Assembly: GCA_021108395.1 (NCBI GenBank)
Contig: JAIOQZ010000032.1
Location: 4,575-68,574, forward strand
Reading direction: 5' to 3'
From: Candidatus Cloacimonadota bacterium
GTDB taxonomy: Bacteria; Cloacimonadota; Cloacimonadia; Cloacimonadales; JAIOQZ01
Length of the DNA stretch: 64,000 nt
Shown: one piece after another, positions 18,843 to 63,413 of the stretch
Layout of the letters: each line of letters opens with the position of its first letter
Position numbering within the stretch: the stretch's first letter is position 1
Made by a program: the position numbers and the translations under genes
The notes under the pieces: model-generated
What the model was told of the DNA's origin: nothing
The model's database searches: none
The model's input: only the letters and a program-made list of their open reading frames with translations

Positions 18843-19025
18843 CAGGGGTTCCACCCCTGAACCCCGCCAAACTTTTTTAAAAAGTTTGGATCAAAAACTC
18901 TTGCGGAAACTTCGTTTCCTATGTACAAAAAATATTTTAATGACACAAGGATGCGTAGCATCCGTAAACGTTTTCGGTTTCGCCTTTTACAAAAGGCGAA
19001 CGGGGTGTCAGGGGCAGCGCCCCTG
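18843..19025. repeat. Modular hairpin repeat family, full copy B (two inverted half-units)
   Basis: Six hairpins with ends caggggttccacccctg and caggggcagcgcccctg; colinear with the reverse complement of 63165-63413; lies between convergent genes. Confidence 0.85.
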
Positions 19026-19043
19026 CTCTTAGCGCCCCTGTTC

Positions 19044-22000
19044 TTATTTAAGCAGCGCCATTCGCCGCGTGAGACTACGCCCGTCTGTCTGGAGTCTCAG
19101 CAGGTAGATTCCGCTGGCCATGCCGGTGGCGTCCCATGTCAACGTGTGCTCGCCGACATCGAAGCGTTCATCGGCGAGAACGGTCACACGGCGACCACGC
19201 ACGTCAAACACTTCCAGCCGCGCCGTGCCTGCCTGCGCCAGACTGAACTGCACAGTCGTGCTGGGATTGAACGGGTTGGGCGTGTTGGGCAGCAGCGCCG
19301 TGACGGGCGCAGGCGGCGTCTCGTCGGCGGACAGCGGGTCGAGCACGTTCGAGATGGCCGCCTCGGAGCTTTCGCCCCACCAGTAGTCGGCGGTGACGGC
19401 AAACTGCGTCTGTTCGCTGAGTGTGATGTCGAGTATGGCGTAAGCGGCCGTTACTGCGGTAAACAATTCCGTCCACAGTTCCGGGTCGCCGACATCGTCA
19501 GGGGCGAACATCCAGCCGGTGAATCCCTCCGGATCGATCTGTGCGTCTCCGGGCATCGTCCACTGTAGAATCACGTCGTCGCTGGTGGTGTAAGCGGCTG
19601 TGAGGGTGGTGGGAGCATAGGCGAACACGCCCAGAGTGAAATCGACAGTCGTCATCTCGCCGGCGGTTACTGATACTGCTCCGACAGTCTCTTCCAGCCA
19701 GCCATTCTTGTTGGCGCGCATGGTGTAGGTTCCCTGGGGCACGGCGCTGAACAGGTAGTCGCCGTCGGGGTCACTGGTGGCGGTGGCGCCCAGTTCGAGA
19801 ATCTCGATGAGCGCGCCGCTGTCGTCGGTCGTCTCGGCCAGATCAACCACGCCGGATATCTGCCCGGCGTCGGCCCAGCTGACGAGGTGAAGCTGGTCGG
19901 GGCTGGGGGTGCAGGCGAGAGCCTTGGGACCCTCGTCGCGCCACACGAACCAGGCCGCGCCCGGCGTCTCGACCTCGTCGGCGCCGTAGTGCAGGGAGTT
20001 TGCGCCCAGCACAATGGGATTGCCGGCGGCATCGTAGCGCAGCATATAGAGATAGCTCTCGTTGGCCGAGTAATCGTAAACGACGCTCTGCGCCCCGCTG
20101 GGAAGCGCGTACTCGATTACCTTTGCGTCGTTGCACACCACCACGCCGATGTCGCCGGTGACGGGGTTGGTGGCGCAGCGGAAAGGCTTGTCGCCGGGAT
20201 TGATCGTGCCGATTACCTGCGAGGCGGCGCCGTCGATCTCGCAAATGGTCGCCGTGTTGCCGAAGCAGTTTGTCACCAGGGCGTACTGGCCGTCTGGAGT
20301 GAACGCGGCCTTGAGCGGGAAGTCGCCGGTGGGCAGACTGGCCACCACCTGCATCGCGTTCGTGTCGATGACCTTGACCTGGTCGTCGAAGCTGGCGCAC
20401 ACCAGCAGGCAACTGCCATCTGGCGAAAGCTCGATGCCGCTGAACGTGCCGTAGCAGGTGTAGACGACGCCGATGACGCCGCAGGGGATTTGCGCCAACT
20501 CGCTGCTGGCCGCGCCGTTCATGTCGATCACCGAGATCGTGTTGCCCTGGATGTTGGCCACATAGGCGCGGCTGCCGTCTGCCGACATCGTCAAATTGAA
20601 CGGTCGCTGGCCCACGTCGATGGTGGCGGCGACGGAGTAGTCGGACAGGTCGATGATATAGACCAGGCCGTCGGAATATTCGGTCATATAGCTGAAGGCG
20701 GTGACGACTGCCCAGTCGCCGTCGGGGGTGACTGCCACGTCACGCGGCTCGACATCGAGCTGGACGACTTCTTCAACGTCGCCGGTGTTCATGTTCACCA
20801 CGCTCATGCTCGTGCCAATGGGACCGACCGCCAGGGCGTGGTTGCCGTCGGGCAGCAGAGCGAGGCGCAACGGCGTGTCGCCTTCGGGGACTTCACCGGC
20901 CAGGCTGCGGCCACAATAGGTAATGTCGCCGGTGTCGGTGAAGTCGAAGAAGGTGATGCCCTCGTAAACGCTGTGGTGGGCGACGATGCGGTTGTTCACC
21001 GGCGAGACCGCGCCGAAATCCTGCTGGATACCCCAACACTGTCCAATCACCGACTCGGTTTCCATGTCGATGAGAGAGAGGCGGTACTGGCCGCTGATGG
21101 CGATGGTGCGGTCGGCGTTCATGCCCAGCCAGAAGGCGGTGTATGTCTGGGAGAAGGTAGCGTAGTCCTGGGTGTCGAAGCGGGCGATGGCGCTCTGGTT
21201 GCCGCTGATGCCCACATAGGCTTTTGCCCCGTCCATAGTCACCCCGGCTTCGTAGTGACCGCTGATGGTTGCCCCGTCGAAGCTGACCGTGCCGGTGGCT
21301 GTCTGGCTCGCCAGGTCGATGCGATGGATGTGGGTGTTGCTCACAGCCACAAGCTGCGCGCCGTCGCCCGACAGATGCACCTTGCGGATGTCATCCAGCG
21401 CGACGGCGCCGGTCATCGTGCCGGTGGTGGTGTCCCAGAACTGCACCTGCGTGTCCCAATCGCCCACGGCCAGCGTGGTGTTGTCGGCCAGCGCCTCGAA
21501 GTTGGTGAACGAGTAGCCCGTGCGACCGGTGCCGAGGCTGCCCCAGAAGCCGTACAGCGCAATGTAGAAACCGTTGATGCTGGAGGTGTGAGTGAGCGTG
21601 GCGAGGTCGATGACTTCGAGCACGTCGTCGATGTCGCAGGCGACGTAGGCCCAGTTACCGTCGGGGCTCACCCGCACGACGACGGGTTGCTCGGCGGTAG
21701 CGAACGTGGCGGCCACCGAATAGTCGTCCAGGTCGATGACATAGACCTCGTCGGAGAAGGTGCAGGGCACGACGGCGTAGTCGTCGGTCACGGCGATGTC
21801 GCGGGGGAACTCGCCTACGGGGATGTTGGCCAGCGGTTGCATGGTTGACCAGTCGTACACCGTGACCATGTCGGAAAGCCTGCTGGTGAGCAGTACGCGG
21901 TCGCCGTCGGAGGTGAAGGCGACTCCGCCGGTGTAGTCGCCCTCCGGCGCTATGCCCGGGTCAATGAGTGCCAGCTCGTAGCGCAGTTGGGGCAGTTGGT

Positions 22001-22145
22001 CGAGAGTTGTACCGCGAGGTACATCCTCGAAAACGACGGTCGGGTCGAAGTTGGCGTCGGTGGTAGCGGCGGCGGTGTCGAACAACGGGACGGCGGCGAG
22101 AATGCCGGCAACGGCAAGCAGTGCAACGGTGGCGAATCGCTTCAT
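19044..22145 (-). CDS. Secreted YVTN-repeat beta-propeller protein with carboxypeptidase-regulatory-like domain and C-terminal sorting (T9SS/FlgD-Ig-like) domain
   Basis: Signal peptide; repeats such as SADGSRAYVANIQGNTISVID; C-terminal NTPNPFNP...SGIYLLRL...RRMALLK. Confidence 0.88.
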   Translation of the reverse strand: MKRFATVALLAVAGILAAVPLFDTAAATTDANFDPTVVFEDVPRGTTLDQLPQLRYELALIDPGIAPEGDYTGGVAFTSDGDRVLLTSRLSDMVTVYDWSTMQPLANIPVGEFPRDIAVTDDYAVVPCTFSDEVYVIDLDDYSVAATFATAEQPVVVRVSPDGNWAYVACDIDDVLEVIDLATLTHTSSINGFYIALYGFWGSLGTGRTGYSFTNFEALADNTTLAVGDWDTQVQFWDTTTGTMTGAVALDDIRKVHLSGDGAQLVAVSNTHIHRIDLASQTATGTVSFDGATISGHYEAGVTMDGAKAYVGISGNQSAIARFDTQDYATFSQTYTAFWLGMNADRTIAISGQYRLSLIDMETESVIGQCWGIQQDFGAVSPVNNRIVAHHSVYEGITFFDFTDTGDITYCGRSLAGEVPEGDTPLRLALLPDGNHALAVGPIGTSMSVVNMNTGDVEEVVQLDVEPRDVAVTPDGDWAVVTAFSYMTEYSDGLVYIIDLSDYSVAATIDVGQRPFNLTMSADGSRAYVANIQGNTISVIDMNGAASSELAQIPCGVIGVVYTCYGTFSGIELSPDGSCLLVCASFDDQVKVIDTNAMQVVASLPTGDFPLKAAFTPDGQYALVTNCFGNTATICEIDGAASQVIGTINPGDKPFRCATNPVTGDIGVVVCNDAKVIEYALPSGAQSVVYDYSANESYLYMLRYDAAGNPIVLGANSLHYGADEVETPGAAWFVWRDEGPKALACTPSPDQLHLVSWADAGQISGVVDLAETTDDSGALIEILELGATATSDPDGDYLFSAVPQGTYTMRANKNGWLEETVGAVSVTAGEMTTVDFTLGVFAYAPTTLTAAYTTSDDVILQWTMPGDAQIDPEGFTGWMFAPDDVGDPELWTELFTAVTAAYAILDITLSEQTQFAVTADYWWGESSEAAISNVLDPLSADETPPAPVTALLPNTPNPFNPSTTVQFSLAQAGTARLEVFDVRGRRVTVLADERFDVGEHTLTWDATGMASGIYLLRLQTDGRSLTRRMALLK

Positions 22146-22173
22146 TTTTATCTCCCCCGGAAGGATTTCTTAC

Positions 22174-22202
22174 ATTATGCATTCTGGGAGAAGTTCTGTC
22201 AA
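22174..22202 (-). promoter_or_regulatory. Putative sigma70-type promoter
   Basis: Minus strand TTGACA-17 nt-CATAAT, 29 nt upstream of ATG 22145. Confidence 0.65.
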
Positions 22203-22330
22203 GCTTACCTTTTGCGAGAGAAAGGTGAGGCTTCAAGACAGTGGCGCCGCCCCTGAACCCCGCAAACTTTTTGCAAAAAGTTTGATCAAAAACTCTTGCG
22301 GATGCTGCGCATCCTTGAGACACGCCCCTG
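22201..22330. repeat. Modular hairpin repeat family, copy C (half-unit plus extra T/A-stem hairpin)
   Basis: aagcttaccttttgcgagagaaaggtgag (cf. copy E), then gcccctgaaccccgcaaactttttgcaaaaagtttgatcaaaaactcttgcggatgctgcgcatcc. Confidence 0.82.
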
Positions 22331-22334
22331 TCTT

Positions 22335-23666
22335 TTACTTGAGCAACACCATGCGCCGAGTGATGCTGTGGCCACCTGCCTGCAAGCGATAGAGATACAC
22401 GCCGGAGCCGACACTGTACCCGCTGTTGTCGACGCCATTCCACACCACCTCGTGGCTGCCGCCTGCGAATGCCGGGTAGCTCCTCACGAGTTGCCCGCGC
22501 AGGTTGAATATTTCCAACATGGCGCTCTGCCGCTCCGGCACGCTGAACCTGATGGTGGTCGTTGGATTGAACGGATTGGGGAAGTTGGGGTGCAACGTAA
22601 TTGCGGAGGCAGGCGGAGGCACAGCCTCGTCGTCCGCGATGCCGACTGGAAGGTCAGTCAGGAACGGGTAGCCGCTGTTGGTGGTTCCATCAATATTCCA
22701 GTAGTCCTCGACGCCGGTGTCGTCGAACGGGTTGCCGACGAAGTCCCAAGGCTCGTCCAGCCCTGTTGTTGCCAGGCTGGTGAATGTGGCCACATCCTGC
22801 ATCTCGGCGGTTGTCTTGCCTGTACCGCTTCCGCTGGTGCTTTGACCGGAAGTTTCGGTGTCCCAGAAGGAGTTGAGGGCATCAGTGTTATAACTACGCC
22901 CGACAAGACCGCCGATGTAATTTCCTGTTCCGCTCACACTACCGGTGCTGTAGCAGTCGCTGATGGTGGCATTATAATAATTAGATCCCACCAAGCCGCC
23001 AACAGTGTCATTCCCGCTCACATTGCCAGTGCTATAACTGGAGCTGACCGTGCGATTCCCCCCATTGCCCCCGACCAAGCCGCCTATACAGTGATAACCG
23101 CTTACACTGCATGTGCTGTAGCAACAATTGACAGTGGAACAACTATTCAGTCCCACCAAGCCACCGGTATAGTGGTAGGCGTATCCGTTCACACTTCCCG
23201 TGCTGTAGCAGTTGCTGATGAGGGATTCATTATTCATTCCCACCAGGCCACCGACATAGCTGCCGCCGTCCACTTCGACATTGGTAACACCAAGATTCTC
23301 TATCGTTGCACAGTCTGTTCGGCCAAACATCCCTATATACAAATCTAAATGATTTATGTGCAATCCATCAATTGTGTGTTCCTGTCCGTCGTAACAACCA
23401 TAAAAACTAAATGCATAGTTTGTTCCTATCGGGCTGAAGCCTTCCCCGTCGTTCCAGTTCTGGGTGTCGCCGGCGTCTATGTCTGCTGTCTGGATGAAGT
23501 GGCTTGCCCAGGAGGTGTCGTTGGTGCTCACCCACAGTAGGTTGTCGAGTGTGGCCATCTGGTAGGGGTCGGCCTCGGTGCCGGAGCCGTCGGGCTGCAC
23601 GCCGTCGGCCAACAGGCCAGTAACGACCATCAGTAATGCAAAAAGTAGTAGCTTTTTCATGTTCAT
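22335..23666 (-). CDS. Secreted GLUG-motif (beta-helix) protein with C-terminal sorting domain
   Basis: Signal peptide MKKLLLF; GSGTEADPY; five GGLVG repeats about 27 aa apart; NFPNPFNP...RRMVLLK. Confidence 0.88.
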   Translation of the reverse strand: MNMKKLLLFALLMVVTGLLADGVQPDGSGTEADPYQMATLDNLLWVSTNDTSWASHFIQTADIDAGDTQNWNDGEGFSPIGTNYAFSFYGCYDGQEHTIDGLHINHLDLYIGMFGRTDCATIENLGVTNVEVDGGSYVGGLVGMNNESLISNCYSTGSVNGYAYHYTGGLVGLNSCSTVNCCYSTCSVSGYHCIGGLVGGNGGNRTVSSSYSTGNVSGNDTVGGLVGSNYYNATISDCYSTGSVSGTGNYIGGLVGRSYNTDALNSFWDTETSGQSTSGSGTGKTTAEMQDVATFTSLATTGLDEPWDFVGNPFDDTGVEDYWNIDGTTNSGYPFLTDLPVGIADDEAVPPPASAITLHPNFPNPFNPTTTIRFSVPERQSAMLEIFNLRGQLVRSYPAFAGGSHEVVWNGVDNSGYSVGSGVYLYRLQAGGHSITRRMVLLK

Positions 23667-23692
23667 CTCCTCTGAGATCGTGGTTATCAATA

Positions 23693-23820
23693 CACTCCAC
23701 TTTCGCCATGCAGCACTAACTTCATATCGAAGTTAGTGCTACAAAGCTTTCTCACTCCACTTTCGGGTATTCGCTACGCTATATACCCTTTCGTTCGATG
23801 AGTAGCGCGGGAGCGCTACT
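23693..23820. repeat. Cluster of short direct repeats and hairpins (REP-like)
   Basis: CACTCCACTTTCG at 23693 and 23753; perfect 12-bp-stem hairpin 23712-23740; further hairpins 23765-23788 and 23801-23820. Confidence 0.6.
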
Positions 23821-26128
23821 TCAACATCACGGCTCGGTGCACCTGGTCTGTGCCTTCCGTACGCAGGCGCAGGAGATACACCCCGGAGGACACAGGGCGG
23901 CTTTCGTGGTCGAGACCGTGCCAGATGACTCTGTGCCAGCCGGCTTCGTGGTGGCCGTCTGCGAGTGTAATTACTCGCTGCCCCAACAGGTTATACACTT
24001 CCAGCAGCGCCGGACCAGGGCTTGACAGCCCAAAGCGCACCTCGGTGTCGGGATTGAACGGATTGGGGTAGTTGCCCTCGATGGTGGTGACCGCCGGGAC
24101 GAGAGCGCCGTCGTCGAGCGCGGTGATGTTCACCTCGACGGTGTTCGACGGCCCGCTTTCCCATTCGTCGCTGTAGATGGTGGTCACATAGTACTCGTGC
24201 ACACCGGCAGGCACATCCATGTCAGTGTATTCGTTGGCGTAGCCGTTGACCAGTTGTTCATTGTCGCGATATACCCAGTAGCCTGTCACCGAGCGCACGG
24301 GGACGTCCCAGGTGAGGTGCACGTCGTTGCCATCGACCGAGGCTTCGAGGTTCATCGGCGCCTGGAAAACAACCTCGGCCACGACCGCGTCGCTGTGAGA
24401 GCTTTCGACGACTTCGTCGTAAACGGCTGTCATGGTGTAGCTGTGAGAGCCTTCGGGAAGGTCGGCCTCGATATAGGAGTCGATGGCCGCGTCGAGCTCG
24501 GCGATGAGCAGCGCGTTGCGATAGATGTTATAGCCGGTCACGTTCAGGTCGTTGGCAGGCGGGTCCCACTCGAGCGTAACGTCGTTCTCGATGACCGACG
24601 TGACGAGATTGATTGGCGGGGTGTAGTCGGGCACCGTCACTGCGGCGATGTTGCCAGGATCGGACTGGCCGCCGGTGTACAGCGCCATTACCCAGTATAA
24701 ATACTGGCCGCTATTCAGGCCGGTGTCGGTGTACTCGGTAAGGTCGGGGTCGTCTATCTGCACATGCGAAATGCCATTGCGGTAGAGCAGATAGCCCAGC
24801 AGCGAGCGGCTATTCTGGGGAGAATCCCAGTCGAGGGTGACGTCCCGTCCCAGCAGCGTTGCGGTGAGGTTGGCGGGCGGGTTCAGCGGTTCGATGATCT
24901 CAACCGTGACCTGGTTGGAAGGGAATGACTCGCCTTCGTCCCACACGGCGGTGACATGATAAACATATGTGCCCCAGCTCAGATTGGCGTCGAGATAGTC
25001 GAGCACATCGGGCGACAGATTGGCGATGACCGCGTCGTCGCGGTAGAGATTGTAGTTCAGCAGCACGAGGCGAGTGGTGTCTGGCGCTTCCCATGTCAGG
25101 GCGACGGTGTCGTTCTGGATCGTGGAGACGAGATTCTGCGGTGCGGGCAGCAAATTGATTGGCTGCACGAACGAGATGAACCGAGCGCTCACGCCGGTTA
25201 TCTTGATGTCGAGAAGCGCACCGGTGCGGTCAGTTTCGTAAACCCCGCCGCTGTTGGAGCAAAGGATGTTGCCGCCGGGAAGCTCGTAAACACCGCGAAA
25301 ACTGCCCCCGGCGGGCGGGCCGTAGTAACCGAGGTGAGCGCCGTCGGCGGCAAACTCATGTACCCCAGCTTCGTAGGCGCCCGTAGCGCTGAAGTTGGAA
25401 CCGAGAATGGTGCCGCTCGGACAGATAAACATTTGCTCGAACATGCCCGGCAGGGAGCAGAGGTCGGCAATCCAGGCGCCACTGGCGTCGTAGCGGTGCA
25501 GTTGGTCGCAGTCGCTGCCGTTGACGAGGAAATCGCCGACATCCTCGCGGTAGTTCACATCCCAGGGGCTGTCCAGCCCGCCGCCGCCCACAGGGACGAA
25601 GTTGCCCAGATAGTTGCCTTCGCCGTCGAACTCGGCGATGGCGTTGGCGTTTGCGCCCGATGCGACAGTGACGAAGATATGGGCGTCGTCCATGCGCACA
25701 TACATGCCGCGAACGTTGTTGAGAATATCGGGATTGACGCCGCCCGCGGGCGCGAACAGACCGATGTAGTTGCCATCGAGGTCGTACTGATGCACGCAGT
25801 CCGCTGTCTGGTCGGACACCAGCAGGCGCGTACCATCAGGGTGCATCACGATTTCGATGGGTGTACCGCTGTTATTCGGGTCAAGCGTAATGAAGGCGGC
25901 ATCGAGAAGGTCGCCGGTGTCGGGGTCGAACGACATGATGCAGTCGGTGGTGCTGTCGGGGATGAGAATCAGGCCTTCGGGCGGTATCTCGCGGGTTTCT
26001 CTGGTAGGTGAAGTGGCGACCCCGTTTCCGGCATCGCCGAGGCCAAGCTCTTCGATCTGCTCGGGAGTGAAGGCGATAAGCCCCGCCGCAGCGACGAGCG
26101 AGACGAGAATAAAGAAAAAGCGTTGCAT
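23816..26128 (-). CDS. Secreted protein: NHL-like beta-propeller, four FN3 repeats, C-terminal sorting domain
   Basis: Signal peptide; four 'P.NL....V.L.W..P...Y..YR...ES..SN' repeats; NYPNPFNP...RAVMLK. Confidence 0.87.
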   Translation of the reverse strand: MQRFFFILVSLVAAAGLIAFTPEQIEELGLGDAGNGVATSPTRETREIPPEGLILIPDSTTDCIMSFDPDTGDLLDAAFITLDPNNSGTPIEIVMHPDGTRLLVSDQTADCVHQYDLDGNYIGLFAPAGGVNPDILNNVRGMYVRMDDAHIFVTVASGANANAIAEFDGEGNYLGNFVPVGGGGLDSPWDVNYREDVGDFLVNGSDCDQLHRYDASGAWIADLCSLPGMFEQMFICPSGTILGSNFSATGAYEAGVHEFAADGAHLGYYGPPAGGSFRGVYELPGGNILCSNSGGVYETDRTGALLDIKITGVSARFISFVQPINLLPAPQNLVSTIQNDTVALTWEAPDTTRLVLLNYNLYRDDAVIANLSPDVLDYLDANLSWGTYVYHVTAVWDEGESFPSNQVTVEIIEPLNPPANLTATLLGRDVTLDWDSPQNSRSLLGYLLYRNGISHVQIDDPDLTEYTDTGLNSGQYLYWVMALYTGGQSDPGNIAAVTVPDYTPPINLVTSVIENDVTLEWDPPANDLNVTGYNIYRNALLIAELDAAIDSYIEADLPEGSHSYTMTAVYDEVVESSHSDAVVAEVVFQAPMNLEASVDGNDVHLTWDVPVRSVTGYWVYRDNEQLVNGYANEYTDMDVPAGVHEYYVTTIYSDEWESGPSNTVEVNITALDDGALVPAVTTIEGNYPNPFNPDTEVRFGLSSPGPALLEVYNLLGQRVITLADGHHEAGWHRVIWHGLDHESRPVSSGVYLLRLRTEGTDQVHRAVMLK

Positions 26129-32733: not shown

Positions 32734-33823
32734 CCTCTCCGTCAAATTATTCGGCCATACGTTGTCCAATCCCATCATGCCCGCTGCCGGGCCCAACTGC
32801 CGCGACGCCGCCATGCTGAAACGCGCTGCTGCGGGCGGCGCCGGCGCTCTGGTGATGAAAACCGTGTCGGTAAACCCGGCGCAGGTGCCCTTTCCCAACA
32901 TCATCGCTGCGGGCAGGCACAGTCTCTTGAACGCGGAGCTGTGGAGCGAGATTCCCGTCGAGCGTTACCTCGAACACGAATACGCAGCCGCCAAAGAGAC
33001 CGGCCTGATGCTCATCGCCAGTCTGGGCTACACCGCCACCGAGCTGGCCGCGCTGGGACCGCGCATCGAGGCCACCGGCTGCGTGGACGCGCTTGAATGC
33101 AGCGTTCACTACCTCGGCCAGAATCTTGCGCCGGTGGTGGAGGCCATGAGCGCATTGCGAGCAGTGGTGAGCTTGCCAATCATGGTCAAGGTGAGCCCGG
33201 CCATCGCCGACATCGCCGCGCTGGTGGAGGCGCTGGACGAGCACGTGGACGGCTACGCCGCCATCAACAGCCTCGGTCCCTGCCTCGACTTCGACCCCGT
33301 CACCGTGCACCCGAAGTTAGGCAGCGAGCACGGCTATGGCTGGCTTTCGGGCGATGCCGTGCTGCCGCTGGCGTTGCGCGTGGTGCATCAGCTTGCGCTG
33401 CATACCCGCAAGCCCATTCTGGGAGTGGGAGGCGTGAGCGCCGGGGTGGACGCCGTGAAGATGCTCATGGCCGGAGCCACCGCCGTGCAGGTTTGCTCTG
33501 CCGCCATCCGCGAGGGGCAGGGCGTCTATGGGCGCATCGCCGGCGAGATGGACACCTGGTTGGCCGACAACAGCTATGCCGCCGTGCGCGACATCATCGG
33601 CCTCTATGCCAGGGGCAATCAGCCCCTCACCCGCGAGCTGCGCCGTCCCGAGCTGGATCGCAAGCTCTGCTCGCGCTGCGGAATTTGCGTGAAGGCCTGC
33701 ATCCACAACGCCGTCGAGACCGACGCCGACAACTGGCCGGTGCACACCACGCGGTGCCTGGGTTGCGGCTACTGCGTTTCGGTATGCCCGAAGGGAGCGC
33801 TGAGACAGGAGCGCTGCCCCTGA
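32726..33823 (+). CDS. Dihydroorotate/dihydropyrimidine dehydrogenase-like FMN enzyme with C-terminal 2x[4Fe-4S] ferredoxin
   Basis: NPIMPAAGP, VMKT, MVKVSP, AINS, GWLSG, GVGGV, MAGATAVQVCS; CxxCxxCxxxC twice. Confidence 0.85.
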   Translation: MPDLSVKLFGHTLSNPIMPAAGPNCRDAAMLKRAAAGGAGALVMKTVSVNPAQVPFPNIIAAGRHSLLNAELWSEIPVERYLEHEYAAAKETGLMLIASLGYTATELAALGPRIEATGCVDALECSVHYLGQNLAPVVEAMSALRAVVSLPIMVKVSPAIADIAALVEALDEHVDGYAAINSLGPCLDFDPVTVHPKLGSEHGYGWLSGDAVLPLALRVVHQLALHTRKPILGVGGVSAGVDAVKMLMAGATAVQVCSAAIREGQGVYGRIAGEMDTWLADNSYAAVRDIIGLYARGNQPLTRELRRPELDRKLCSRCGICVKACIHNAVETDADNWPVHTTRCLGCGYCVSVCPKGALRQERCP

Positions 33824-33879
33824 CACCCTTAGAAGCCGATTTTCGCAAGCGAGACCAAAAACTTTGCAAGAAGGTGAGC
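33806..33879. repeat. Modular hairpin repeat family, degenerate copy D overlapping the stop codon
   Basis: caggagcgctgcccctgacacccttagaag...gagaccaaaaact matches the start of copy E (cagggacgctgctcctgacatccttagaag...gagaccaaaaact). Confidence 0.7.
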
Positions 33880-33890
33880 ATTCAAACATA

Positions 33891-33921
33891 AAGAAGCCCC
33901 GGCGCTACCGGGGCTTCTTCT
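33891..33921. terminator. Likely bidirectional terminator between convergent operons
   Basis: AAGAAGCCCCGG-cgcta-CCGGGGCTTCTT. Confidence 0.75.
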
Positions 33922-33935
33922 TGCATAGCAGTTGT

Positions 33936-42709: not shown

Positions 42710-42928
42710 CCAAAACCTCCAGTCTTATTTTAGTTATGTTTTCATTATCATTGCGCACACTTATTCGAGCAAGATTCTTACCAGTCAACACCTTTCACTC
42801 GGATTTTCTATTCCTGTAAGAAACATTGCACTGCGAGCAGGACAGCGCCAGCCTGTCACAATCGGTAAACCCGCAGACTGCCGCGAAAGATTCCCGTCCT
42901 GGTTTTTCTCTTTCTATTCACTACCAAG

Positions 42929-42944
42929 TGCAATAAATGTGCCA
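42929..42944 (-). promoter_or_regulatory. Consensus sigma54 promoter upstream of the P1-M14-C25 operon
   Basis: Minus strand TGGCACATTTATTGCA, an exact TGGCAC-N5-TTGCA match. Confidence 0.7.
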
Positions 42945-43027
42945 CTGAACAATGGGTTCTGCAAAGTTAATAGCTCATAGTTTACGATTAACAGACAATC
43001 GTTTACACCTCGACAATGAAAAGTGGG

Positions 43028-43059
43028 AAGCAAGAAGGCCGCCTCGAAGTGAGACGGCC
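43028..43059 (-). terminator. Terminator after P2 (hairpin duplicated identically at 46305-46327 after P3)
   Basis: Minus strand GGCCGTCTC-acttc-GAGGCGGCC followed by TTCTTGCTT. Confidence 0.6.
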
Positions 43060-43081
43060 AGAATCGCGGAGAGAAACGAAG

Positions 43082-46099: not shown

Positions 46100-46147
46100 A
46101 ATGCCCTCCAGACGAGTGTTGCAAGTATGTGTGTTTCCATTGACATA

Positions 46148-46163
46148 TGCAATTGTTGTTCCG
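46148..46163 (-). promoter_or_regulatory. Putative sigma54 promoter of P2
   Basis: CGGAACAACAATTGCA (GG-N10-GC), 49 nt from the ATG, same position as in P3. Confidence 0.5.
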
Positions 46164-46349
46164 TTTTTTGATTTTCTTTTGCAAATTAATACTCACACAA
46201 TAAATGTGTCACTGAGTAAAGGGTTTTAGCATAGAGAATCTCTTTCGGTTTTCGGCTCAGAAACAATCGTTTACACCTCGACAATGAAAAGTGGGAAGCA
46301 AGAAGGCCGCCTCGAAGTGAGACGGCCAGAATCGCGGAGAGAAACGAAG

Positions 46350-49300: not shown

Positions 49301-49352
49301 CAACGAGTGAACTCAGCATGCACAGCATGAGAAAAAGGCTTGCGTATTTCAT
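46350..49352 (-). CDS. Secreted repeat/beta-propeller protein with C-terminal sorting domain, paralog P3
   Basis: N-terminus identical to P2 from ATG 49352 (GGAGG RBS); near-identical C-terminal domain. Confidence 0.85.
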   Translation of the reverse strand: MKYASLFLMLCMLSSLVAQEFDWDDNGIPVVQGANIRWGAQAVRTTDGGIVCVWTNTSAGNRRVVAKKLMPDGSEPWGEEPVYVCDSEGTQERPVVTAVVDGCVVIVWTDYTSDPLGDIHAQRLSQSGERLWDEEGIVVCDMDTKPGNIALVPANDSQVHVFWVDGDLHGVFRNRITNNGFCYCGHTGAIVAGSIDEDSHLSACSDGFSGAILTCRLDNDDEDDLLAIRVGSTNWIVPLCVAPGEQMESRVCRISNGVFGFVWRDERENNDGDIYAQACDIDGNLLWAADVIVNAGDFEHKNPHIINDGDGGMFIAWLMRQTNPYSSTYFYVQKIDSDGNLLWDTEGVILCDESIHYGNHGLAAGDNGDVYAVWGSWQGYYESQIDVFMQHVLSDGSIAWEENGRAVCTLPGRQRLPFMARSGNFLLLAWADDWLPEESRDPYPTEPNAACLRTQVLTLDGAELLAPDGQVFAEGPILYDFDPLELDLQIVPCGESTYVLWMMSTRYTMQLHAQKLLPDGSTAWGETGVVLADFGSGIPYDYTATLHHDGGLAYTWSHKVGTQHRVFANACDNDGNRLWGEEGVAVSELPRGQYEPNIERWDEEYVVGWIQTEPDSLWGSYRNVYAQKIVDGTIQWGSDGIQVFTENDYYTHLRDIVGPYFLIEIGYKTYVVRLESDGTISPGFETLLAIGATDDRQNYPSGEMVGNDLLVVYENCHNYNRDIYGQLVHPDGSVAWGEDGAPLIVGPWSQLRPLLAVHEDGGVVSCQAYPDELQMVRLQNFDMNGAVQWDPMGLLISTDEGRQCLSAMGVNDDGVLIAWRDYLGNPSDLRLQLVNMEGELLYEEGGVILCDAPYYQHDPLMAPAGDDHVVLVWNDQRAARQYNDHVCAIYAQRVNTSVTGVNDPVPAPPALRLAQNTPNPFNPETAIDFSLAAPSHITLCVYNIRGQLVNTLVNDRLPAGTHSVVWDGRDSHGVAAGSGIYLYQLRSGSHTATRRMLLLK

Positions 49353-49400
49353 AATGCCCTCCAGACGAGTGTTGCAAGTACATATTTTCAATCTACGACA

Positions 49401-49416
49401 TGCAAATTTCCTTCCA
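49401..49416 (-). promoter_or_regulatory. Putative sigma54 promoter of P3
   Basis: TGGAAGGAAATTTGCA (GG-N10-GC), 49 nt from the ATG. Confidence 0.5.
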
Positions 49417-49537
49417 CTTTCATGGTTTTTCAGATTGGCGCTCATATATTTGTTGACATCGATAGCTTCACACAAGTATGTTCTTTTGCAGTGAGTCAAG
49501 GTAGCATGGGCTGCCTGAACTGAAAAGAGGAAACACC

Positions 49538-50574: not shown

Positions 50575-51936
50575 ATGCCGCTCACCATTGTTTCCGTTGA
50601 CAAGGGCAGCCCTGCCGACCGAGCGGACGTGCGCTCGGGTGACAGCCTGTTTCGCATCAACGGCCAACCCGTTGACGACTTCCTCGATTTGCAGTTTCAC
50701 GGCGCCAGCGAGCATCTCGTGTTCGATGTGCTGCGGCCTGACGGTGAACGCTGCGAGCTTCGAGCGCAGCACAACTGGAGTCGGCCCCTGGGCATCGAGC
50801 CGGAGCTGCATCGCTGCCGCGTTTGCGTGAACGACTGCGTCTTCTGCTTCGTTGACCAGATGCGCCCCGGTTCTCGCCCCAGTCTGAATCTCAAGGATGA
50901 CGACCCCGCCTTCTCGTTTAGTTTCGGCAATTTCATCACGCTAACCAACTTGGGTCGAGGTGACTGGCGACGCATTGTCTCGCAGCGTCGCTCACCGCTC
51001 TATGTCTCCGTACACACCACCGACCCTGCGTTGCATCGACGGATGCTGCGCTATCCTCACGCTTTCAACATCATTGAGGCGTTGCGCCGACTGGATGGTG
51101 AAGGCATCGAACTGCACACGCAAATCGTCATCGTGCCAGGCATGAACGACGGCCTCGCACTCGACCGCACATTGTCAGACCTGCTGTCGTTGCGTAGCGT
51201 GCTCACTGTCGGTATCGTGCCTGTGGGGCTAACACGGTACCGCCAGGGCCTTACCCCAATGCAACAGGTGGATTCCGCCGATGCCCGCGAGCTACTGCGC
51301 CAGGCCGAGGCTGCCAATGTCGGTCAGCCGACCGTGCGCGTGCTTTGCTCTGACGAGATATATCTGCTGGCTGGGGCAAGCTTCCCGTCGGCCGAGCACT
51401 ACGACGACTATGCGCAGATCGAGAACGGCATCGGCATGGTGCGCATGATGAGAGAGAACTGGCTGGATCGCGGTGAGGAACTCATCGGTGAGCTGGGAAA
51501 GCAGAGCAGCCGCCTGGTGCGGAAGATAATGAAGAAACACATGGAGAAGTACGGCGGGGAAAATGACATTGTCGTGGAGATGAAGGAGATTGGCAGATTC
51601 GTCATCGTCACCGGCACACTGGCCGCTCCTGAGATGCAGAAAATAGCTGCTGCCATCAATGACTCCATGGGCCAGTACCAAGTTCGTGTGCAGGCCGTGT
51701 TTAACAACTATTTCGGCTCAACGGTTACCGTTGCCGGGCTTCTCACCGCCAGTGACATCCGGCGGCAAGTTAAGCTTGACTTCGGCGAGACCGCCATCCT
51801 GCCCAGCTCGGTGTTCAATCATGACGGCTATACTCTCGACGACGTGCATCGTGATGACCTGTATCGCAAAATGCCGTTCATCGTGGTTGACGAGTTGCTG
51901 CACGGATGGGAGAGCATTGATACGGCTTTAAGATAG
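50575..51936 (+). CDS. PDZ + radical-SAM-like DUF512 protein
   Basis: N-terminal PDZ (GSPADRADVRSGD), CVNDCVFCFVDQ, GNFITLTN, QIENGIG, VTVAGLLT. Confidence 0.9.
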   Translation: MPLTIVSVDKGSPADRADVRSGDSLFRINGQPVDDFLDLQFHGASEHLVFDVLRPDGERCELRAQHNWSRPLGIEPELHRCRVCVNDCVFCFVDQMRPGSRPSLNLKDDDPAFSFSFGNFITLTNLGRGDWRRIVSQRRSPLYVSVHTTDPALHRRMLRYPHAFNIIEALRRLDGEGIELHTQIVIVPGMNDGLALDRTLSDLLSLRSVLTVGIVPVGLTRYRQGLTPMQQVDSADARELLRQAEAANVGQPTVRVLCSDEIYLLAGASFPSAEHYDDYAQIENGIGMVRMMRENWLDRGEELIGELGKQSSRLVRKIMKKHMEKYGGENDIVVEMKEIGRFVIVTGTLAAPEMQKIAAAINDSMGQYQVRVQAVFNNYFGSTVTVAGLLTASDIRRQVKLDFGETAILPSSVFNHDGYTLDDVHRDDLYRKMPFIVVDELLHGWESIDTALR

Positions 51937-51950
51937 GGGTGCCGCCCCTG
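51935..51950. repeat. Solo terminal hairpin of the repeat family between convergent genes
   Basis: AGGGGTGCCGCCCCTG overlaps the DUF512 stop and abuts the leuS stop. Confidence 0.5.
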
Positions 51951-51952
51951 TC

Positions 51953-54430
51953 TTACTTCACGACGATGCTCACCAGCTTGCGTGGTATGACGATAACTTT
52001 GCGCACAGTTTTATCTTCGAGGAATCGCTGCACGTTTTCCTGCGTCAGGGCAGTCTCGCGCACCTGCTCCTCGGTTGCGTCGGCGGGCACTTCGATTTTG
52101 CCGCGCAGCTTGCCGTTTATCTGCACCGGATAGGTGATTTCGTCTTTTACCAGGCAGGCCGCGTCGTATTCGGGCACGCCTGCTTCGTGGACCAGCCCGC
52201 CGTCGGCGACCTGCTGCCAAAGCTCTTCGCAGATATGCGGCGCGAATGGGTACAGCAGCCGCGGAATGACCGCACACGCCTCTGCGAACACAATCTGCTC
52301 CGCTTCGGGCAGGCTGCCTGGTTGCTTGATGGCCGTCACGTTGTTGAGATGCTCCATCACTGCGGCGATGGCGGTGTTATATTGCATCCGCTGCTCGATG
52401 TCCTCGCGCACTCGCTTGATAGTATTGTGCGTGCTATAGCGCAGTTGCTTCATCGTTGGACTGAGCGCTGCGTCGCCGATTGCTTCGCGGTGTTTGCGGA
52501 TGATGTCGCCGTGCGCCTCGAACACGCGCCAGACGCGGTTGAGGAACCGGAACGCGCCCACCACGCCTTCGTCGTTCCACTCGACGTCTTTTTCCGGCGG
52601 CGAGGCGAACAGCACAAACAAGCGTATGGTATCGGAGCCGAAACGCTGGATGAAGTCGAGCGGATCGACCACGTTGCCCTTCGATTTGCTCATTTTTGCC
52701 CCGTCTTTGACCACCATGCCCTGCGTGAGCAGCCGTGCAAACGGCTCGTTGCCGCTCACCATGCCGATGTCGCGCATGAACTTATGGAAGAACCGCGCAT
52801 AGAGCAGATGCCCGGTGGCGTGCTCGATGCCGCCGATATATTGATCGACAGGCAACCAGTAGTCGGCGCGCTCGCGGGCAAAGGGCGTTTTGTCGTTGTG
52901 GGCGTCGGCGTAGCGCGCGAAGTACCATGAGCTATCGACGAAGGTGTCCATCGTGTCGGTTTCGCGCCGGGCCGGGCCGCCGCACTGCGGACAGGACGTG
53001 TTCACCCATTCCTCGACCGATAACAGCGGGTTCTGGGTGGTTTTGCCCACCTGAACGTTATCGGGAAGCAGCACCGGCAGGTCTTCATCGGGCACGAGCA
53101 CAGCGCCGCACTTGTCGCAATAGATGACCGGGATGGGATTGCCCCAGTAACGCTGGCGGCTGACGTTCCAGTCGCGCAGACGGTAAGTTGTTGTGCGCCC
53201 GCCCATTTCGTTCTGCTCGATGTGCTTCGAGATGGCGTCTATGGCGTCGATGCTGCTCATGCCGTCGAACGGGGCGCTGTCGTTCATCACGCCCGGCTCG
53301 GTGTAGGCTGCTTCCATCTCGTTCAGCGACAGGCTGCTCTCATCGTTCTGGATGACGATGCGCATGGGGATGTCATACTTGCGGGCGAACTCGAAGTCGC
53401 GCTGGTCGTGCGCGGGCACGGCCATAACAGCGCCGGTGCCGTAGTTCATCAGCACATAGTTTGTCACCCATATCTGCACCGGCTTGCCGTTGAGTGGATT
53501 GACGCACACATGGCCGGTGTCGAAGCCTTCCTTTTCGGTGTCGTCGGCGGCGCGAGAAAATTTGTCCTCGGCCATCACCTTGTCGCAGAACCTGGCCAGG
53601 GGGCTGTCGGCGGGTTCCATGGCCAGCCAGCGGCGCACCAGTGGGTGCTCTGGCGGCAGTGCCATGTAGGTAACGCCATAGATGGTGTCTGGGCGGGTGG
53701 TGAACACCGGGATCTCGCCGTCCTCGCCTTGCAGGGGGAAGACAATCTGCGTGCCGACGCTCTTGCCGATCCAGTTGGTTTGCATCGTGATGACGCGCTC
53801 CGGCCACTTGATGACACCCGAGAAATCGAGCAGTTCGTCGGCGTAGCGTGTGATGCGAAAAAACCACTGGTCGAGTTCTTTCTGCTCGACGGTGGTGTCG
53901 CAGCGCCAGCAGCGTCCGTCGCTCACCTGCTCGTTGGCCAGCACGGTTTTGCAGCCCTCGCACCAGTTAACGAACGATTTCTTGCGATAAACCAGATCGT
54001 TTTCGTACAGCCGCTTGAAGAACCACTGCCCCCAGCGGTAGTAGTCGGGACGGCAGGTGCTCAGCTCGCGGTCCCAGTCGAGGCCGAAGCCCATCAGGTT
54101 GAACTGGTGGCGCATTATGGAGATATTGTCCTCGGTGGTGATGCGTGGGTGCGAGTTATGCTGTATCGCAAAATTTTCGGCGGGCAGGCCAAAGGCGTCG
54201 TAGCCCATGGGCTGTAACACGTTGTAGCCCTGCATCAGTTTGTAGCGGGTCACAGCGTCACCGATCGAGTAGTTGGACACATGGCCCATGTGCAGCGCCC
54301 CAGAGGGATAGGGGAACATCGACAGCACATAGTATTTGGGTCGGTCGAGGTTGTCTTTGCCATTGAAGACTCGGCGTTCTGCCCAGATTTTCTGCCATTT
54401 TTTCTCTATTGTCTCAAACGGATATTCCAT
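51953..54430 (-). CDS. leuS: Leucine--tRNA ligase
   Basis: MFPYPSGALHMGH, FTTRPDT, GTGAVMAVPAHDQRD, KMSKS; GGAGG RBS before ATG 54430. Confidence 0.97.
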   Translation of the reverse strand: MEYPFETIEKKWQKIWAERRVFNGKDNLDRPKYYVLSMFPYPSGALHMGHVSNYSIGDAVTRYKLMQGYNVLQPMGYDAFGLPAENFAIQHNSHPRITTEDNISIMRHQFNLMGFGLDWDRELSTCRPDYYRWGQWFFKRLYENDLVYRKKSFVNWCEGCKTVLANEQVSDGRCWRCDTTVEQKELDQWFFRITRYADELLDFSGVIKWPERVITMQTNWIGKSVGTQIVFPLQGEDGEIPVFTTRPDTIYGVTYMALPPEHPLVRRWLAMEPADSPLARFCDKVMAEDKFSRAADDTEKEGFDTGHVCVNPLNGKPVQIWVTNYVLMNYGTGAVMAVPAHDQRDFEFARKYDIPMRIVIQNDESSLSLNEMEAAYTEPGVMNDSAPFDGMSSIDAIDAISKHIEQNEMGGRTTTYRLRDWNVSRQRYWGNPIPVIYCDKCGAVLVPDEDLPVLLPDNVQVGKTTQNPLLSVEEWVNTSCPQCGGPARRETDTMDTFVDSSWYFARYADAHNDKTPFARERADYWLPVDQYIGGIEHATGHLLYARFFHKFMRDIGMVSGNEPFARLLTQGMVVKDGAKMSKSKGNVVDPLDFIQRFGSDTIRLFVLFASPPEKDVEWNDEGVVGAFRFLNRVWRVFEAHGDIIRKHREAIGDAALSPTMKQLRYSTHNTIKRVREDIEQRMQYNTAIAAVMEHLNNVTAIKQPGSLPEAEQIVFAEACAVIPRLLYPFAPHICEELWQQVADGGLVHEAGVPEYDAACLVKDEITYPVQINGKLRGKIEVPADATEEQVRETALTQENVQRFLEDKTVRKVIVIPRKLVSIVVK

Positions 54431-59553: not shown

Positions 59554-59635
59554 ACAGACCCGGCCATCAGCCGGGCCTGCGCTATATTCCATAATAAACA
59601 CGCCGGAAGGCAAAAACTGAATTGAAAGGCATTAC

Positions 59636-61855: not shown

Positions 61856-63159
61856 TGCACCTTTCCGATAGCGTTCGCAGCAGCCTGCACAGCATCTTCA
61901 GTCACAAGATGCGCTCGGCGCTGACGCTCATCGGCATCACCATCGGCGTTTTTGCCGTTGTCACGATGTTTTCCACCATGCAGGGCGCCAAGCTCATGAT
62001 ACAGGACATGATGGGCGACCTCGGCTGGAACAACTCGATAATCATCATACCATCCAGCGGCGACGATCATGTGCGCACGCGCCGCCGTCGCTGGCAACGA
62101 TTCATGCGGGTCAACTGGCGGGCGCGGCCATTTTCTTACAGCGATTTCGAGGCAGTGCGCGCCGCCTGCGACAGCAAGACAATCTACGGCTGGACCGAGT
62201 CGTGGTTCAATACAAATGCGCTCATCGGCGATGACGGCGCTCCCCTTGCCAACTCCGAATACGACTGGGTTCGTTTCATCGCCACCAACAACGATTTCTT
62301 TGCCAACAAGACATATCCGCTACGTTACGGGCGTTACTTCAATGACTTCGAGGAGAAGAACGCGGTCAAGGTGTTGGTGCTGGGCGCTCTGTTCGCCGAG
62401 AAGTATTTCCCCGGCGATGACCCCAGCGGCGAGATGTTGACAATCGGCCCACACCGTTGCAGGATTATCGGCGTACTCGACAGCGACCAGCTGAATAAGC
62501 GGAATGGCATGAACATGAACCCGTGGGAGCGGCGTCGAGAGCTGGAGGCGGTGTATGTGCCGCTGTCAACTGGCGCACGCTACTTTGGTAGCAATAACGA
62601 GATACAGTCCATTTTTCTCCAGTCGCACGGCGATGATGACTTTGCCCTGATGAAAAACACCGCCTGGCAGACAATGCTGCGCGAGCACAAGATGTCGCAC
62701 GACTTCCGTTTCGAGGACGTGGGCGCCATGATGCTAACCATCAGCGATGAAATCGACAAGCAGATGAACACCTGGAACATGACGCTGTCCGCCATCGCTT
62801 CCATCTCGCTGCTTGTGGGTGGCATCGGATTGTTCAGCACGCTGCTCATTTCCATCAACGAAAAGATGACTGAAATAGGGGTGCGCAAGAGCGTGGGCGC
62901 CACCGAGCGCGACATTTTCTTCTATTTCCTCATCGAGTCGGTCACGCTGGCCATGATGAGCGCGGTGGTGGGCGTTACGCTGTCTGTGGCCATCATCACC
63001 ATCACTACCAAAGTCGCCGGTTTCACCTTTCCGCTGCCCGTCGAGGGCATCCTGCTCGGCCTCGGCTTCGCCGCCTTCATCGGCGTGCTCTCCGGCTTCT
63101 ATCCCGCCTGGAAAGCCTCGAAGGTCGACCCTATCCAGGCGATATTCTACTTCGAGTAA
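61855..63159 (+). CDS. MacB/FtsX-family ABC transporter permease
   Basis: RSALTLIGITIGV, SLLVGGIG, EIGVRKSVGA, QFL-type FLIES, YPAWKASKVDPI; TGATG overlap with topA. Confidence 0.9.
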   Translation: MHLSDSVRSSLHSIFSHKMRSALTLIGITIGVFAVVTMFSTMQGAKLMIQDMMGDLGWNNSIIIIPSSGDDHVRTRRRRWQRFMRVNWRARPFSYSDFEAVRAACDSKTIYGWTESWFNTNALIGDDGAPLANSEYDWVRFIATNNDFFANKTYPLRYGRYFNDFEEKNAVKVLVLGALFAEKYFPGDDPSGEMLTIGPHRCRIIGVLDSDQLNKRNGMNMNPWERRRELEAVYVPLSTGARYFGSNNEIQSIFLQSHGDDDFALMKNTAWQTMLREHKMSHDFRFEDVGAMMLTISDEIDKQMNTWNMTLSAIASISLLVGGIGLFSTLLISINEKMTEIGVRKSVGATERDIFFYFLIESVTLAMMSAVVGVTLSVAIITITTKVAGFTFPLPVEGILLGLGFAAFIGVLSGFYPAWKASKVDPIQAIFYFE

Positions 63160-63164
63160 AGAGG

Positions 63165-63413
63165 CAGGGACGCTGCTCCTGACATCCTTAGAAGGCTCAC
63201 TCCGCTTCGCTACGCGACAAGCTCACCTTTTTCGAGAAAAAGGTGAGACCAAAAACTTCTAACGGATGCTAACGCATCCTTGTTCACTTCACCACTCCGT
63301 TATATATCACCAGTAACTGTTGGTTATTTGTACATAGGAAACGCAGTTTCCGCCAGAAGTTTTTGATTCCACTTTTTACAAAAAGTGGATGGGGTTCAGG
63401 GGCAAAGCCCCTG
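63165..63413. repeat. Modular hairpin repeat family, full copy E (inverted relative to copy B)
   Basis: Reverse complement aligns with 18843-19025 hairpin by hairpin; lies between convergent genes. Confidence 0.85.

Follow-up and report, generated by a model that had tools for sequence, protein, structure and literature searches.

Small hairpin repeats make up a measurable share of many bacterial genomes, and to our knowledge a mover is known only for the class of repetitive extragenic palindromic (REP) sequences, and their inverted doublets (REPINs), that is linked to a REP-associated tyrosine transposase (RAYT). The locus studied here raises the question of what a large, structured repeat is when no such enzyme accompanies it. 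It lies in a 64,000-nt stretch of a Candidatus Cloacimonadota bacterium (the window; positions 4,575 to 68,574 of contig JAIOQZ010000032.1, assembly GCA_021108395.1), in which a modular hairpin element occurs at six sites. A preceding sequence-only reading took it for either a REPIN-like element or MITE (miniature inverted-repeat transposable element), non-autonomous and moved in trans by an HUH/RAYT-like nuclease, or a structured RNA family of 3' untranslated regions (3'-UTRs), and it proposed a covariance model, scans of this and other genomes, and a comparison with Rfam. We consider it probable that the family is a non-coding, non-autonomous mosaic DNA repeat of the kind of REP sequences, bacterial interspersed mosaic elements (BIMEs) and MITEs, multiplied in this lineage and kept behind native stop codons, with constraint at the DNA level and with relatives in several phyla. 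It is apparently undescribed and REP/BIME-like; the literature searched, with supplements outside its scope, held no description of it.

Results

Organization and Abundance of the Repeat

The genome is a 2.89-Mb metagenome bin of 62 contigs with 56.5% GC and 98.3% completeness. The repeat is built from half-units of about 80 nt, each consisting of a tip, a first hairpin (hp1), a C4 linker, a second hairpin (hp2), a conserved linker, and a third hairpin (hp3). The tip is purine-rich, either (T)AAGA or AAGAG. Hairpin hp1 is CAGGGG-N5-CCCCTG, with the variant ATGGGG-N5-CCCCCA, and is followed by the C4 linker AACCCC. Hairpin hp2 is a 10-12-bp palindrome in which five to six variable, GC-rich outer pairs surround a T4-5/A4-5 core. 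The linker between hp2 and hp3 reads A(T/C)C(A/G)AAAAC plus 5-8 nt, and hp3 is a 6-bp hairpin (GGATGC, GGAAAC, or GGATAC with its complement) that leads into TATGTACA or TTGTGTCA. In a full element, an AT-rich centre separates two half-units that point towards one another.

Exact CAGGGG-N3-7-CCCCTG hairpins occur 75 times in the 2.89 Mb, far above chance. Iterated nhmmer searches from five window half-units gave 195 half-unit matches (183 at E<1e-5; 131 near full length), split 102 to 93 between the plus and minus strands. They fall into 126 loci, comprising 67 facing pairs, 58 single units, and one triple. Among the 69 neighbouring pairs of matches within 300 nt, 68 are oriented (+,-) with hp1 outside, one is (+,+), and none is (-,+). 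Elements are 180-276 nt long, most commonly ~183-185 or ~214-215 nt, and longer ones have an extra non-palindromic module of ~30 nt that separates hp1 from hp2 or hp2 from hp3. There are also further, optional hairpin modules. Of 150 candidates that were scored across the genome, 149 match a covariance model (R1) built from an alignment (A1) of five copies in the window. The family is thus larger than the six sites seen at the outset. Contigs C6 and C30 begin inside an element.

Unlike Arms

Within an element, the hairpin variants of one arm are never those of the other, a rule not previously noted. There are about seven main hp2 classes (CCAAAC, TCCAC, CTCGC, CTCGCC, CTTACC, CTCAC, and CTCACC) and three hp3 classes. 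No element had a single hp2 class in its two arms (0 of 37; 5.97 expected, with 0.15% of 2000 shuffles as low), and none had a single hp3 class there (0 of 31; 9.9 expected, with 0 of 2000 shuffles as low), while hp1 is of one family at both ends. Because the arm linkers are mutually complementary and the hairpins are self-complementary but unlike, folds mix local hairpins with pairing between arms. Minimum free energy structures contain local hp1 and hp2 hairpins together with inter-arm linker pairing (z = -8.8 for DNA and -6.95 for RNA). Copies with the same variant in both arms may have been lost or never made: palindromes repeated identically from arm to arm would form direct repeats in addition to inverted ones, which slippage could delete or which might not be tolerated as long perfect palindromes. 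The full element would thus be a series of local hairpins connected through paired linkers, and not one long perfect palindrome.

Covariation of the Stems

Fifty-three distinct half-units from the window and 27 loci were aligned to R1 (alignment A2). Standard pairs account for 97.6% of the 1095 cells in A2 compared with 83.0% in shuffles (0 of 500 shuffles reached the observed value), 16 of 22 pairs are changed on both sides, and controls with partners slid by 1-3 columns gave 39-60% paired. Column diversity averages 0.24 in stems versus 0.29 at unpaired positions; stem columns are about as variable as unpaired ones, so complementarity is kept and not sequence. The least variable unpaired stretch of the half-unit is the linker TCAAAAAC. 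Variation is mostly between discrete alleles, and the number of independent compensatory events in the genome is therefore modest. With these double-sided changes and the same behavior in foreign genomes (below), the co-varying stems and conserved linkers described from the window are borne out.

One-sided changes of the G-U type occur in only 2 of the 1095 cells, and a hairpin scan of 3498 pairs found G:T mismatches 10 times, A:C 18 times, and others 33 times, giving no wobble bias. Because pairing is preserved by Watson-Crick pairs alone, the constraint probably acts on DNA, possibly as extruded cruciforms or single-stranded DNA. The sequence-only reading had the structure maintained on single-stranded DNA or RNA; structural constraint is upheld and would be at the DNA level, and a 3'-UTR RNA family has no positive support.

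Position at Gene Ends

Elements are concentrated at the ends of genes. The 116 classifiable loci are convergent in 44 cases, tandem in 56, and divergent in 16, and the remaining 10 of the 126 are at contig ends. Genome-wide there are 260 convergent, 1593 tandem, and 248 divergent spacers, and elements are enriched about threefold in convergent ones. Among 136 hp1 tips, 84 have the stop of an incoming gene within -200 to +60 nt. Forty-three of these 84 stops lie at -9 to +2 of the tip, with peaks at -5 (17) and -6 (9), and nine more at +15 are the TGA inside CCCCTGAAC. The stop is TAA in 33 of the 43 tip-proximal cases versus 650 of 2160 genes genome-wide. The purine tip is present at 54 of the 59 tips where a gene stops and at 69 of the 77 others; since it is there irrespective of a gene end, it belongs to the element or to a preferred site. 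In 15 of 29 convergent full elements, the two genes both stop inside the tips or no more than 11 nt from them, and at least one does so in 25. Convergent spacers that lack an element measure 6 nt or less in a quarter of cases, so abutment of both stops could also arise by insertion into short gaps. For phosphofructokinase (PFK), LeuS, GlnA, and RecG, the end residue is the same as in orthologues from six or seven same-family genomes, and only 0-4 nt separate the native stop from the element.

The hairpins lack a trailing T run, and the sequence behind hp1 is TCTT or AACCCC. The 17 terminator-like sites found in window positions 4000-23900 include none of the three elements there. Canonical terminators stand behind 12 of 96 genes with an element and 123 of 948 without, and hence are not depleted. 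Rfam 15, searched at gathering score and also at an E-value threshold, held nothing relevant: at gathering score it detected only tRNA in the window, and eight element loci from five genomes gave only sub-threshold microRNA and plastid hairpin noise on Rikenellaceae central palindromes, leaving the element without a curated RNA assignment. The alternative of a 3'-UTR structured RNA family thus finds no positive support in G-U pairs, Rfam, T runs, or terminator frequency, but the tight position of stop codons leaves room for a role at the level of RNA or translation.

Distribution in Other Genomes

R1 had no match in 40 relatives or in 150 genomes sampled across the phylum (the two sets overlap). 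Copies of the same plan do occur in unrelated bacteria. When 185,579 species genomes were scanned for the pattern, at least 93 single matches appeared, and re-scoring with the family profile retained eight real loci among the matches listed. These have a GC hairpin of other sequence, a short linker, N5-6-TTTTT-NN-AAAAA-N5-6, A(C/T)CAAAAACTTT, and a third hairpin, and two of the eight have facing arms. At E<=0.01 with 150 candidates scored per genome, R1 matched 46 times in an Oscillospiraceae metagenome-assembled genome (MAG), 97 times in an Anaerotignum MAG, 27 and 36 times in two Rikenellaceae MAGs, and 77 times in Novacetimonas cocois. In 27 foreign half-units, 95.6% of cells are paired versus 66.4% in shuffles (0 of 500), 19 of 22 pairs are changed on both sides, and G-U is rare. 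Within families, R1 at E<=1e-4 with strict filters found carriers among 5 of 61 genomes in the Novacetimonas family sample and 9 of 61 in the Rikenellaceae sample. These carriers probably represent a wider family with one plan and a near-identical hp2 and linker core, patchy in several phyla, and the conserved hairpin and linker would be what the copying agent recognises.

The hp2 and linker core with a true palindrome is also found in viral contigs (40 of 117 pattern instances, some counted twice because loci overlap), where arms flank ordinary genes, and, as an unannotated sequence, on plasmids of Komagataeibacter and Novacetimonas. A pattern scan of metagenome contigs gave 32 single matches, none fitting the family profile. 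The sequence of the element from the present genome is unrelated to anything found, with no match in Rfam or among PLSDB plasmids. The Rikenellaceae version (MAG G159; loci L193, L198, and L204) has a perfect palindrome of ~70-80 nt in the centre of the element, which attracts sub-threshold Rfam matches to microRNA precursors.

Search for a Mover

The window contains no transposase, as noted before; none was present among the domains of 37 window proteins, which are ordinary chromosomal proteins (two-component systems, secreted FlgD_ig/Por-tail proteins, LeuRS, SecA, TopA, and PFK). A six-frame search of the assembly for PF01797 (Y1/RAYT/IS200) had no match, nor did it in three of five unrelated carriers (36-77 copies each), including the isolate N. 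cocois; matches in the other two were weak, partial, or interrupted by stops. Y1_Tnp is present in 120 of 151 genomes of the phylum sample, often several times each, including four of five same-family genomes. The Y1 gene inspected in one relative belongs to an ordinary IS200-like element, and its end hairpins are unrelated to the repeat. The transposases of the present genome are DDE_Tnp_1, rve, and IS110 on small contigs; searches of the genome for DDE_3 and the TnpB Zn-ribbon were negative. The dispersed, modular, structure-constrained nature of a REP/REPIN/MITE-like element is therefore retained from the sequence-only reading, while the HUH/RAYT-like driver that it named is not.

Copies in the Window

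The element is present at all six sites, with the content first read from the sequence. Two are full elements of two facing half-units (18843-19025 and 63165-63413), and those at 4410, 22201, 33806, and ~51935 are partial, internally deleted, or solo-hp1 forms. The sites at 18843, 33806, 51935, and 63165 lie between convergent genes, as described, and those at 4410 and 22201 between tandem genes. According to our open reading frame (ORF) calls and direct reading, a stop codon abuts or overlaps every window tip, in agreement with the initial description.

In the first full element, the left arm (18838..18929, plus strand; R1 96.6 bits; stop TGA 18840-42) comprises hp1 (18843-59), linker AACCCC, hp2 CCAAACTTTTT/AAAAAGTTTGG, linker ATCAAAAACTCTTGC, hp3 GGAAAC/GTTTCC, and then TATGTACA. 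An AT-rich centre without strand (18930..18938) separates it from the right arm (18939..19025, inverted on the minus strand; R1 97.4 bits), which has hp1 at 19009-25, hp2 TTCGCCTTTT/AAAAGGCGAA, linker ACCGAAAAC, and hp3 GGATGC/GCATCC. The hp2 and hp3 variants of the right arm are unlike those of the left. Matches of the first profile are typically ~25 nt apart, and the R1 arms, which include the motif behind hp3, are 9 nt apart at 18930..18938. The tip CTCTTA and a 15-nt near-duplicate of the terminus, GCGCCCCTGTTCTTA, occupy 19026..19046 and end in TTA 19044-46, the stop of a minus-strand secreted beta-propeller gene. The terminus at 19020-19046 therefore stands in a 15-nt tandem near-duplication (GCGCCCCTGCTCTTA / GCGCCCCTGTTCTTA). 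Half-hp1 remnants lie just beyond complete tips at ~11 other tips in the genome, which suggests that the same sites were hit by repeated events.

The second full element has a left arm and centre at 63157..63326 (plus strand), consisting of the stop TAA 63157-59, tip AGAGG, hp1 CAGGGA..CTCCTG, an extra non-palindromic module GGCTCACTCCGCTTCGCTACGCGAC (~35 nt), hp2 CTCACCTTTTT/AAAAAGGTGAG, linker ACCAAAAAC, hp3 GGATGC/GCATCC, and an enlarged centre. The inverted right arm (63327..63421, minus strand; R1 102.5 bits) has hp3 GGAAAC/GTTTCC, linker ATCAAAAAC, hp2 TCCACTTTTT/AAAAAGTGGA, hp1 at 63397-63413, and tip TCTTC, followed by TCA 63419-21, the native stop of the PFK gene.

The partial copy at 4404..4508 (plus strand) has the tip TAAGAG, which contains the stop TAA (4404-06) of a sigma-54 activator gene, and hp1 CAGGGGTTTCACCCCTG at 4410-26, followed by a half-unit with a second, ATGGGG-type hp1, an imperfect hp2 CAACTTTTT/AAAAAGTGG, linker ATCAAAAACTCTTGG, and a decayed hp3; R1 scores 71.6 bits at 4430-4508. 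About six ATGGGG-type tips in the genome (e.g., C4:127442, C19:12788, C29:6695, and C14:71599) have a further module CTTAACAAAAAGTTTGGTTGACAAG beyond the tip, with TTGACA facing outward next to genes starting there; this module may be a portable -35 box.

The copy at 22201..22334 (plus strand) is internally deleted or composite. It consists of an hp2-type remnant (22201-34), a complete half-unit (22239-22324; R1 102.1 bits), and an 11-nt terminal remnant GCCCCTGTCTT (22324-34) that adjoins the stop TTA 22335-37. On the minus strand, 22174-22202 is the best sigma-70-like match of 20 kb scanned (TTGACA-17-CATAAT, 11/12); it abuts the hp2-type remnant and lies upstream of a 1033-aa beta-propeller gene. 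No promoter match was found inside window elements in these 20 kb. The variant copy at 33806..33885 (plus strand; nhmmer match C1:38380-38439) has hp1 CAGGAG..CCCCTG, an alternative linker ACACCCTTAGAAG, an alternative hairpin module, and linker ACCAAAAAC. The upstream ORF stops at TGA 33821-23 within hp1, and a canonical terminator follows the copy at ~33893-33925. The solo hp1 palindrome TAAGATAGGGG-N5-CCCCTGTCTTA (51929..51955, no strand) is the entire gap between the convergent DUF512 and leuS genes and contains both stops (TAG 51934-36, the first 3 nt of hp1, and TTA 51953-55).

Other repeats occur in the genome. A 1.1-kb insertion, with a TPR gene and two copies of a BoxC-like repeat, splits the centre of element C12:43255-44518 and is a nested insertion. 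The BoxC-like repeat is a second, unrelated family (C6 / G6 / hairpin / G6 runs; C12:43332-43482 and C1:209380-210800), and its copies in the C12 insertion form an inverted pair with no gene between them, beside the TPR gene. Window positions 39725-49499 hold three tandem paralogous genes of ~1000 aa with FlgD_ig C-terminal domains, in 3.3-kb direct repeats of 61-91% identity; this is a secreted surface-protein array in expansion.

Discussion

The family resembles the REP sequences and BIMEs of Enterobacteria and Pseudomonas in having hundreds of extragenic copies of genome-specific sequence, small GC-rich palindromes in alternating orientation with conserved linkers, mosaics with optional modules, placement at gene ends and between convergent genes, and paired units of different variants. 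BIMEs themselves alternate Y and Z units, and those of the Escherichia coli type also belong by sequence to the enterobacterial palindromic-unit (PU) families and bind IHF, gyrase, or Pol I. Escherichia coli BIMEs are defined by regularly spaced palindromic units in alternating orientation with conserved linker motifs (PMC2817692), and the present family has both the alternation and the linkers. It differs in its three hairpin types (one T5/A5-centred), in a unit of 80 nt versus 20-40 nt, in lacking a GTAG/CGTC tag and a RAYT, and in an hp2 and linker core that is almost unchanged in other phyla. REP superfamilies are tagged with a GTAG or CGTC tetranucleotide at one palindrome end (PMC3733652). 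The 86-nt consensus of 53 half-units contains no GTAG, CTAC, CGTC, or GACG, and CTAC appears only in the optional non-palindromic module.

REPINs, as portrayed by Bertels and Rainey (PMC3337134, PMC3116915), share with our family the inverted palindrome doublet, a spacer whose fold is kept while its sequence varies, singlets as remnants, and no target duplication. The facing order of 68 of 69 neighbouring pairs and their folding agree with a doublet, but no RAYT gene, which in such systems typically has the repeats on its flanks, was found, and the arms are 80 nt long and internally structured. REPINs are formed by REPs of one group (PMC3337134); here hp1 is of one family at both ends, but the inner hairpins never share a class between arms. 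MITEs derived from insertion sequences (ISs), e.g., the Correia elements of Neisseria, are likewise short, non-coding, intergenic, and high in copy number, with inverted ends and a position against gene ends. However, the present family lacks both target-site duplications and a parent IS whose ends match, its ends are themselves hairpins, and its stems co-vary, a property that a transposase binding double-stranded DNA would not require of its site. Membership among IS-derived MITEs was rejected, as neither parent-IS terminal repeats nor direct duplications were found (31 complete elements; five IS contigs).

BoxC/PIT/TMECO triplex repeats are similar in the order of G-, C-, and C-runs at hp1 and its linker (G4-N5-C4-N3-4-C4), in intergenic location, and in inverted unlike pairs. 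The TMECO consensus has three 9-nt tracts, CCCTCNCCC N3-6 GGGNGAGGG N3 GGGNGAGGG, and its pairs are "always type A with type B," according to PMC4666352. Membership was rejected because the tracts here are only 4 nt and 9 nt are needed; the BoxC likeness lies with the separate C6/G6 repeat of this genome and not with the mosaic family.

A mobile DNA repeat that multiplied in this lineage, and whose copies would have been retained directly behind native stops, above all between convergent genes, is the reading that we favor. Several points count against it. No act of movement was seen, and target-site duplication is absent: around 31 complete elements the AAGA/TCTT tips are inverted and no direct repeat is present. 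There is no master copy with a transposase; the only (+ ... -) pairs with cargo, two in number, carry either a TPR gene or genes for glycosyltransferase and surface proteins, and the genes bracketed by tips are housekeeping genes without a transposase (YigZ-like, CheW, RecG, GlnA, an ABC ATPase, a secreted protein of nuclease fold, and two that match no Pfam family). IS contigs C54, C56, C57, C59, and C60 have ends unlike the tips. No empty site was found in three public DNA runs of one study, which have low coverage, in which contigs stop at elements, and which speak neither for nor against movement. The gene calls (2160 genes) come from a crude codon-usage caller made for this analysis, and A2 and the foreign half-unit alignment (A3) were fitted to the model structure, which favors the pairing counts. 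RNA constrained in both read directions would also give Watson-Crick-only pairing. At all four genes compared, most same-family relatives have a GC hairpin and T run 10-30 nt downstream, and tips lie 0-5 nt from native stops far more often than loose "tolerated insertion" predicts, which could indicate function and not selfishness. As to the candidates set aside, the 18899-to-22298 joint in the public runs proved to be a repeat-to-repeat join. The IS contigs are 1.2-1.6 kb, each a single IS (DDE_Tnp_1, IS110, or rve); C57 has 18-nt inverted ends and C59 repeated GACA(A/G)GGTAAC-like sub-terminal motifs.

These gene-end observations lead to the rival idea that a half-unit read from the tip inwards is an RNA 3'-end structure after the stop, acting as an unconventional terminator, mRNA stabiliser, or translation-termination brake. 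REPs near stop codons reportedly affect translation. Roles of REP sequences in termination and mRNA stabilisation have been hypothesised (PMC3733652). The idea draws on the stops at -9 to +2 in 43 of 136 tips and at +15 in nine more, the TAA bias, abutment in convergent full elements, convergent enrichment, and the native C-termini of PFK, LeuS, GlnA, and RecG, behind which the element stands where most relatives have a GC hairpin and T run. These four comparisons suggested that the element replaces terminators, which we rejected on the equal genome-wide terminator frequency with and without an element. The missing T run, the absence of terminator-like window elements and of an Rfam match, near-absent G-U pairs with no excess of G:T over A:C in the incoming orientation, 16 of 116 loci between divergent genes, and short gaps as an explanation of abutment also make a gene-end signal rather unlikely as the primary nature of the family. 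The signal may instead be a co-opted mobile repeat, each convergent transcript meeting its own half-unit in the same orientation in a full element, and a gene-end RNA function and a mobile repeat may coexist.

Two further explanations appear improbable to a similar degree. One is a classical REPIN, with hp1 and its conserved 5' tetranucleotide as the REP, the facing pair as the REPIN, and a RAYT mover recently lost or unbinned. Inverted doublets of a tagged palindrome with a folding spacer fit this anatomy, the lack of target duplication is as for Y1 elements, and Y1_Tnp is common enough in the phylum to make its absence here unusual. A RAYT gene of ~0.5 kb flanked by repeats would yield a contig too short for a 62-contig bin whose smallest contig is 1121 bp, and could be lost in this way. 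However, PF01797 is missing at 98.3% completeness and in three of five other carriers, including an isolate with 77 copies (and is weak, partial, or stop-interrupted in the other two), the relative's Y1 gene is ordinary and IS200-like with unrelated end hairpins, the part conserved across phyla is hp2 and its linker and not hp1, and the consensus lacks the GTAG and CGTC tags. A resident RAYT/Y1 transposase does not explain the family. The other has the linker and the readily extruded AT-centred palindromes as predicted chromosome-structuring sites for a universal host protein (HU/IHF-like, gyrase, or a Xer-type recombinase), spread by recombination and not transposition. It would account for TCAAAAAC being the least variable unpaired stretch and kept across phyla though no shared dedicated enzyme was found, and ATCAAAAACTT(A/G) linker variants resemble, as a lead only, the IHF consensus. 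Putative likenesses to Xer sites and attC were set aside. The ACC and ACCG linker variants deviate from the IHF motif, and the patchy, burst-like occurrence within families, with none in sampled genomes of the phylum, fits a mobile element better.

A broader form of the mobile-repeat reading, which we offer tentatively as a possibility short of an even chance, is that the three-hairpin unit, with its near-invariant core of hp2 and A(T/C)CAAAAAC, is the substrate of an unrecognised, widespread mobility or copying system, either an uncharacterised phage or plasmid nuclease or recombinase, or a universal host function acting on extruded cruciforms. Independent bursts would have occurred in Cloacimonadota, Bacillota, Bacteroidota, and Alphaproteobacteria, and copies would then have been kept or co-opted as gene-end elements instead of classical terminators.

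The family breaks assemblies and yields false ORFs in bins of uncultured bacteria. Four phyla share one plan of three hairpins, fully compensatory in its changes, with the unlike-arm rule, stop-codon placement, and no RAYT. If the conserved core is the recognition site of an enzyme, comparison of carriers with non-carriers in Rikenellaceae and Acetobacteraceae could reveal a new mobility system, and because cultivable carriers exist (Novacetimonas and Komagataeibacter), this is testable.

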